From the IMG/VR virus record IMGVR_UViG_3300017917_001151, positions 1-64,000 of that record: DNA of 64,000 nt; one strand, 5' to 3'; not shown here. This DNA comes from a virus. The text below continues a report on this DNA, generated by a model with database tools.

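Follow-up and report, generated by a model that had tools for sequence, protein, structure and literature searches.

Extent and genomic setting of the island

The initial annotation had described 33 consecutive genes for modifying enzymes, among them 14 radical SAM genes in five paralog families, the last one truncated, in a block that leaves the window on its right side. Each of these observations holds. The window contains 33 open reading frames in a row from the island's left end to its edge; Pfam Radical_SAM is found in 13 complete genes, and the cut fourteenth retains the C-terminal part of a zinc-ribbon radical SAM gene of 349 aa; and all-against-all BLASTP sorts these genes into five families. 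The true extent is larger, since in the full IMG/VR record the block (the island, genes g01 to g45) continues well beyond the window and includes a fifteenth radical SAM gene there (table). The record is 82,851 bp long with a CheckV completeness of 23%, so that the whole genome should measure several hundred kb, and the enzyme block takes up about 45% of this 82.9-kb fragment. Its GC content (0.33–0.37) is slightly under that of the left part of the window (0.36–0.44).

The island is embedded in a fibre module, with fibre genes on both sides. To its left lie a T4-type clamp loader gene (phrog_168, E 4e-76), whose best GenBank relatives are in PA5oct-like Pseudomonas jumbo phages (55% identity) and next in Atu_ph07-type phages, a 2480-aa protein with a T4 gp9/10 N-terminal domain and matches to tail-fibre PHROGs, and additional baseplate-wedge and fibre-like proteins. 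Directly after it comes g46, a fibre-like gene with an Mtd_N domain, followed by a metallophosphoesterase gene, and a GOLLD RNA and ten tRNA genes are found at the far end of the record. One pond-metagenome run, which may be the source, contained every word sampled from a 10-kb piece of the island; two freshwater runs contained small shares of these words, and none of the runs listed is of RNA.

Positions of features on the IMG/VR record, and gene membership of the radical SAM families
Feature	Position	Genes or content
Additional baseplate-wedge and fibre-like proteins	5–30 kb	
Kdo-8-phosphate synthase gene and adjoining glycosyltransferase-like gene	24.2–25.9 kb	
Glycosyltransferase-like gene (phrog)	24210–25007	
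PTPS/QueD-like gene	25972–26523	
Fe-S supply operon	about 14 kb left of island	IscA-type carrier, IscU, Fe/Mn superoxide dismutase
Island	35921–73205	g01–g45
Island, part in window	35921 to window edge	33 open reading frames, g33 cut
Radical_SAM matches, six-frame Pfam search	36.0–72.1 kb	15 matches
Radical SAM gene cut by window edge	ends at 64534	g33
Promoter boxes at the g41|g42 junction	about 70367–70396	
Fifteenth radical SAM gene	71399–72562	g44
Radical SAM family A		g01, g03, g08, g09
Radical SAM family B		g04, g26, g29
Radical SAM family C		g05, g16
Radical SAM family D		g07, g10
Radical SAM family E		g27, g30, g33, g44

Radical SAM families

All of the Radical_SAM matches over the cut-off in the six-frame search fall within the island, and each of the 15 genes has exactly one copy of the CX3CX2C motif. 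With hmmscan against PF04055 (cut-off 29.5 bits) 14 of the 15 are over the cut-off, and g30 scores 28.8 bits. Identity within families is 21–55% by BLASTP, which points to old duplications.

Family D alone among the five passes a curated NCBIfam cut-off. Its members g07 (388.6 bits) and g10 (336.2 bits) match NF033640, N_Twi_rSAM (cut-off 170), over model positions 1–397, and so belong to that family; g10 also has a Pfam SPASM match at residues 10–70. This whole-model match nevertheless accounts for only 2 of the island's 15 radical SAM genes. To our knowledge NF033640 has been named without an assigned reaction. Family C is nearest to N_Twi and a tungsten-cofactor maturase, and family A to viperin-like enzymes, MoaA, the STM4011 family and QueE, in both cases under the cut-offs.

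Family E joins a zinc ribbon (PF23545, over its cut-off) to the radical SAM core, as does its nearest solved relative, the tetraether lipid synthase GDGT-MAS (PDB 7tol, E 1.4e-24). The likeness is confined to the N-terminal half, which is the only part that aligns; Tes and GDGT-MAS have about 486–530 residues and family E proteins 349–387 (about 150 fewer), and the latter are soluble phage proteins without a lipid context. Likewise g27, the most widespread family E member, scores 74.9 bits against a Tes equivalog cut-off of 450 and falls outside that equivalog. The best NCBIfam models for family B are PhpK, ladderane-lipid, HpnJ and HpnR, all far under cut-off (57.8–76.4 bits for PhpK, against 600). 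The B12-binding Pfam model (cut-off 32.1) gives 18.7 bits for g26 and 19.1 for g29, with nothing reported for g04, and the best PDB match is a short stretch of TokK (E 1.4e-7). We call family B class-B-like.

Oxygenase-like and other island genes

Three of the putative Fe/2OG oxygenase-like genes fall within Pfam families: g17 is a TauD protein (PF02668, 94 bits against a cut-off of 27, profile positions 12–267 of 267), and g21 (37.1 bits) and g40 (40.7 bits) belong to Asp_Arg_Hydrox (PF05118, cut-off 22.6). Both g21 and g40 have the HxD motif, with the distal His placed by eye in the sequences. Iterated profiles built from the island and 78 related loci (below) add g12, g15, g23 and g42 to this AspH group. 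A five-member family (g14, g18, g19, g20 and g22) has an invariant H..D...H pattern, a weak tie to the AspH group by profiles and a best PDB match at E 0.05. The island's AspH-type proteins have the HxD...H triad of the Asp/Asn beta-hydroxylases (PF05118; human AspH), but they are phage-encoded single-domain proteins of 160–270 aa, and no EGF-like substrate domain was identified.

The gene g25 has no family by Pfam or by PDB profile search. Its AF2 model is of moderate confidence (pLDDT 67), and all of the fold matches listed for it are 2OG oxygenases, headed by human AspH (Z 7.4, rmsd 4.2, 150 aligned residues) and including the nucleoside-antibiotic pathway hydroxylases 7v4p (Z 6.6), PolD and PasI. 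A 2OG oxygenase fold is thus probable for g25, a grade set by Z values that are middling by the tool's own standard. ESM Atlas features offered AspH-like and N-acetyltransferase-like viral clusters as leads for g25 and g38. A fusion of a Rieske oxygenase to a g25-like domain (P0371) was set aside as a possible gene-calling artefact, since it occurs on a single 3-kb contig.

Secure assignments among the remaining genes are a methyltransferase (g32) and a hexapeptide acyltransferase (g41), and g45 is a conserved 220-aa fragment of an AMP-binding enzyme. Several labels of the initial annotation fared less evenly. Its SDR gene, g28, does match the SDR family but only at its N-terminus, and its PLP gene, g06, was not confirmed, as a PDB profile search gave only E about 0.9. 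Its kinase-like label holds for g13 as to fold, g13 being a paralog of g36, though in g36 the catalytic Asp residues appear to be replaced. The g36 model is confident (pLDDT 92.8) and has a protein-kinase fold, with at least 500 Foldseek matches at E <= 0.001; the best are to ULK1, TTK, phosphorylase kinase, Aurora, Bud32 and an RNA kinase (E about 6e-6 to 4e-5), and TTK is also matched by PDB profile (E 3e-4). In an alignment of 21 sequences, invariant H-P-S-S-Y and N-Y-F-F stand at the presumed HRD and DFG sites, as placed by eye without superposition, and g36 may be catalytically dead. The gene g38 is GNAT-like by language-model neighbours only, and PDB profile searches with the g25, g38 and g39 families gave no match. 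The analysis placed g02, g24, g31, g34, g35, g37, g39 and g43 in no family. None of 47 proteins has a 19-residue segment reaching a Kyte-Doolittle mean of 1.6, so all of the products look soluble.

Operons, promoter boxes and Fe-S supply

The island is laid out in short operons of alternating direction, and each of its divergent gaps, 25–65 bp long, holds TAAATA-type boxes facing both ways. Of 44 island genes, 12 have TAAATA in the 45 nt upstream, as do 9 of 63 other genes, whereas 1.5% of random 48-nt windows contain it. Eleven of the 12 island genes are all of the operon starts at strand switches (g01, g11, g12, g20, g21, g27, g28, g30, g31, g33 and g34), and the twelfth, g37, is internal to an operon. 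The junction between g41 and g42 is missing from this tally because their overlapping annotated starts hide the boxes found there, which suggest later starts for these two genes and a sixth divergent junction. Outside the island the box precedes the giant fibre gene along with further fibre and baseplate genes, and also g46, which is flanked by two terminators of the hairpin-plus-T-run type.

The T4 late promoter is TATAAATA. From the likeness of the TAAATA boxes to it we infer that the island would be expressed late. An operon to the left of the island encodes an IscA-type carrier, IscU and a superoxide dismutase (table), and so the phage itself appears to provision its Fe-S enzymes.

Distribution and conservation

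The family E alignment, run against IMG/VR, hit 227 stretches; a relative is encoded by 142 of them, and the best 80 of those 142 gave 78 distinct loci. Nearly all of the 78 have several further island genes in recognizable order, and the synteny across related phages that was proposed as a check on the island is thus present. Four genes form a core; among the 78 loci, many of which are cut at contig ends, g36 is found in 76, g38 in 73, g25 in 71 and g27 in 71. Then follow g13 and g14 (63 each), g12 (58), g18 (51), g10 (46), g39 (41), g17 and g40 (38 each), g09 (35), g04 (33), and g06 and g11 (31 each), while many other island genes occur in 3–8 loci. In the most distant group, with g27 44–48% identical, the block is reduced to about g12-g13-g14-g28-g35-g25-g38-g36-g27, followed directly by a g46-type fibre gene. 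Five large island-bearing records, our own included, have 15, 8, 7, 7 and 15 radical SAM genes.

Searches with g25, g26, g27 and g46 against 50,697 GenBank phage records found no match, and g46 was accordingly dropped as a candidate for a phage-wide fibre family. The gene g07 has weak matches in four GenBank phage records, none of them a Campylobacter phage; one is Ralstonia phage RsoM2USA, in which a g02-like gene lies two genes from the g07-type match. Proteins of the g25 and g07 families also occur on contigs of 280–379 kb (P0060, P0105, P0139 and P0220). In metagenomes g25 has relatives in 1052 clusters at 90% identity (404 representatives at 50%), and those that carry a name are all called hypothetical protein, so that this appears to be common, strongly conserved and uncharacterized phage biology.

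In cellular genomes at least 351 stretches encode a family E relative. The best 80 of these are 22–35% identical, mostly over residues 4–200, with archaea, Planctomycetota and various uncultured bacteria as their main sources; no close cellular relative of the family is among the matches listed. None of these 80 loci has an adjoining island family, save for a separate B12-type radical SAM gene in 2, and a host-derived block, which the initial annotation had named as an alternative, is therefore contradicted. For the nearest relatives dN is 0.08–0.3, far below a dS that is saturated or undefined for nearly all pairs; this speaks for purifying selection as a direction, the ratio itself being unusable.

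Candidate roles of the island

We tentatively prefer the idea of a tailoring island in the host-recognition region that is expressed late and provisioned by the phage itself, and whose product would decorate the phage's own fibre or virion surface; we regard it as possible rather than probable. The island's place within the fibre module, the promoter boxes common to island and virion genes, and linkage speak for it. The g46-type fibre gene is the island's most faithful neighbor as seen from both directions: a homolog is present in 42 of the 78 loci and is less than 100 bp from an island gene in 27 of those 42, and, starting from g46, island genes are found in 26 of 33 long loci and in all 13 that have a near-full-length g46 match. 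The best-supported enzyme families (AspH type, protein-kinase fold and HemK-like methyltransferase) commonly act on proteins. Runs of a V/L-T-G-N/D repeat occur in 11 of 17 g46 relatives examined, and we speculate that these would present regularly spaced Asn/Asp residues. Complex prediction for g36 and g38 with g46 gave a score of 0.00, a "no answer" that speaks neither for nor against binding.

A bolder form of this idea, which we consider improbable, is that the island generates diversity in host recognition by enzymatic means, through direct modification of a structural virion protein. The fixed core (g36, g38, g25 and g27) would recruit the phage's own fibre protein, perhaps with the apparently dead kinase-fold protein g36 as adaptor, and a swappable, lineage-specific panel of radical SAM and AspH-type enzymes would install differing side-chain changes such as hydroxyl and methyl groups and C-C cross-links. 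Related phages could then display chemically distinct receptor-binding surfaces with the fibre gene unchanged, a use of RiPP-type post-translational chemistry on a full-size virion protein.

The nucleobase alternative, somewhat unlikely in our judgment, is that at least the g07-g11 sub-block (two N_Twi and two family A radical SAM genes and the PP-loop gene g11) extends a FolE-QueD pathway to a 7-deazapurine- or pterin-type base, which goes into phage DNA or tRNA or is released, with oxygenases and methylases tailoring it further as an anti-restriction decoration. A PTPS/QueD-like gene is indeed present in our record (table), PTPS is found in 3 of the 5 large records, and family A has weak QueE matches (NCBIfam E 1e-9; PDB 5tgs, E 2.4e-6) and homologs near a PTPS gene in Campylobacter phage CP21. 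According to PMC10516641, CP220-type phages carry 7-amido-7-deazaguanine in their DNA at 100%, and the DpdA3 of these phages, which is distantly related to TGT, had escaped earlier searches.

The initial annotation had called g11 QueC-like and proposed a search for dpdA and folE in the rest of the genome. For g11 there are a weak PP-loop match and a C-terminal Cys motif, and the QueC model does not report it at E <= 0.01. GTP cyclohydrolase I (FolE) is absent from our own record and present in 2 of 5 related ones, and the TGT/DpdA models PF01702 and PF20314 each match 0 of 5 records, all of them fragments (22–44% complete) and neither model covering the DpdA3 type. The PTPS gene, though over its Pfam cut-off, scores 35 bits against 89 for the QueD equivalog. 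No radical SAM gene reaches the QueE cut-off, so that with FolE missing from our record a recognizable FolE/QueD/QueE/QueC set is not present, and at the Rfam gathering threshold the window has no riboswitch, preQ1 or other. Moreover, neither FolE nor PTPS is encoded within the island, the known deazaguanine pathway needs one radical SAM enzyme against the island's 15, and known deazaguanine systems contain nothing that corresponds to the universal core (g25, g27, g36 and g38). A composite island is also conceivable, in which the g07-g11 block would belong to a nucleobase pathway and the g12-g27 block would have a virion function.

If the target were instead the host envelope, the island would build or edit an unusual sugar, for example a Kdo-like high-carbon one, for host LPS or capsule, as a superinfection block or a release aid. 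We think this unlikely. O-chain modification has been proposed for host recognition clusters (in the available text of PMC7029224), our record has a Kdo-8-phosphate synthase gene over the curated cut-off adjoining the glycosyltransferase-like gene (table), and genes of the SDR, hexapeptide acyltransferase, GNAT-like and AMP-binding kinds commonly assist in sugar tailoring; AprD4 and BlsE are among the solved structures near the island's twitch and class-B radical SAM families. However, the island itself contains no glycosyltransferase, GT2 and GT8 are each found in 0 of the 5 records, KdsA is in our own record alone of the five, and there was no sign of a nucleotidyltransferase, a flippase, a polymerase or a membrane protein. 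Lipid A hydroxylases of the LpxO type are membrane-bound, unlike the soluble island proteins.

A free metabolite is quite improbable as the product. Here the island would start from an abundant host metabolite, whether an amino acid, a nucleotide or a cofactor, and make from it a diffusible compound, for example one like an antibiotic or a signal, that leaves the cell at lysis. Free amino acids are frequent substrates of TauD-type enzymes. The nucleoside-antibiotic hydroxylases in the g25 fold list count for this reading, as does a make-up like that of a tailoring-only cluster, with a PhpK-like radical SAM enzyme, a hexapeptide transferase of the Vat/phosphonate type and the AMP-binding fragment; a paper on a cultured cyanophage also speculates on "antibiotic synthesis genes" that include a radical SAM gene (PMC12801897). 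On the other hand, the genes seen include none for a scaffold-forming enzyme, an exporter or self-resistance, NCBIfam matches to enzymes of named pathways are all far under cut-off, and the tight linkage to a fibre gene would be left unexplained.

Very improbable, finally, is a RiPP, in which the radical SAM, oxygenase and methyltransferase enzymes would hypermodify a precursor peptide encoded elsewhere, as in the proteusins (polytheonamide type). Proteusin clusters combine class-B-like and other radical SAM enzymes, an Fe/2OG hydroxylase and a methyltransferase, and make many modifications with few enzyme types. The island's toolkit, SPASM/twitch radical SAM enzymes included, is similar, only 23% of the genome is in hand, and there are weak NCBIfam matches to peptide maturases; but these are all far under cut-off, placing no island gene of the 23% searched among the radical SAM/SPASM RiPP maturases, and unlike proteusin clusters the island is without a precursor, leader-recognition protein or protease, with gaps of at most 65 bp that leave no space for a small ORF. 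The initial statement that no precursor is visible extends to the whole record, whose small ORFs are ordinary phage and translation genes (IF-1, peptide deformylase, a release-factor-like gene and GroES-like genes among them), none of them Cys/Ser/Thr-rich or repeated; a search for NHLP leaders in the five records gave no match and was uninformative, since control genomes were equally silent.

Decoration of the virion surface thus stays our preferred, if tentative, reading, and would add a new layer of host-range determination; were a base the target, the island would represent a new class of DNA or RNA hypermodification. Whatever the substrate, new radical or oxidative chemistry is likely, since four of the five radical SAM families and most of the cupin genes reach no curated functional model.

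Comparison with known systems

A close parallel in print is the host recognition cluster of pelagimyophages and cyanomyophages (Zaragoza-Solas et al. 2020, PMC7029224, here and below as described in the available text). Like our island it is large and non-syntenic, and it lies in the structural region of T4-like myophages from aquatic settings. Those clusters contain tail-fibre genes together with many enzymes "seemingly unrelated to the tail fibre module", their radical SAM cassettes are gained and lost between close relatives, and an Asp/Asn beta-hydroxylase is core to pelagimyophages. Our record has T4-like markers and fibre genes on both sides of the island, and gene content varies among the 78 loci. 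The published cluster is defined as lying between VrlC and gp14 and is marked by glycosyltransferases and LPS genes; VrlC and the neck gene gp14 were not located on our fragment. The island phage is of a different lineage, none of the five records has GT2 or GT8, and radical SAM and AspH-like paralogs dominate. The freshwater group among the phages of that paper is described as having no radical SAM genes.

The cultured T4-like Campylobacter phages CP220 and CPt10 have 11–12 radical SAM genes in an interchangeable module, given as of unknown role in the available text of Timms et al. 2010 (PMC2853527). Family A is all that the CP220/CPt10/CP21 arrays have in common with the island: g01, g03 and g09 have full-length homologs in phage CP21, CP21_027/028 (21–25% identical), which lie near annotated tail-fibre genes as well as the PTPS gene. 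An oxygenase expansion is not reported for these arrays in that text. Small homologous pieces in two groups of cultured phages, namely Ralstonia phage RsoM2USA and the Campylobacter CP21/CP220 group, make the question of the island's function testable at the bench.

A marine 183-kb T4-like environmental genome has 12 radical SAM genes and an A-type Fe-S carrier (Nishimura et al. 2017, PMC5332604). In the text available it is mentioned in one sentence, as Fe-S-related metabolism, and the likeness to our record, which also pairs many radical SAM genes with its own Fe-S assembly genes (IscU and IscA, with superoxide dismutase), is therefore one of description rather than of sequence. The literature covered, with few subscription journals and without supplements, assigns no product or substrate to such radical SAM arrays.

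Relative to these published systems, what is new here is a freshwater jumbo-phage lineage whose island lacks recognizable GT2/GT8 glycosyltransferases, is dominated by five radical SAM families and an expanded AspH-like set, and has a defined four-gene core of a kinase-fold protein (g36), a GNAT-like protein (g38), an AspH-like protein (g25) and a Tes-like radical SAM protein (g27).

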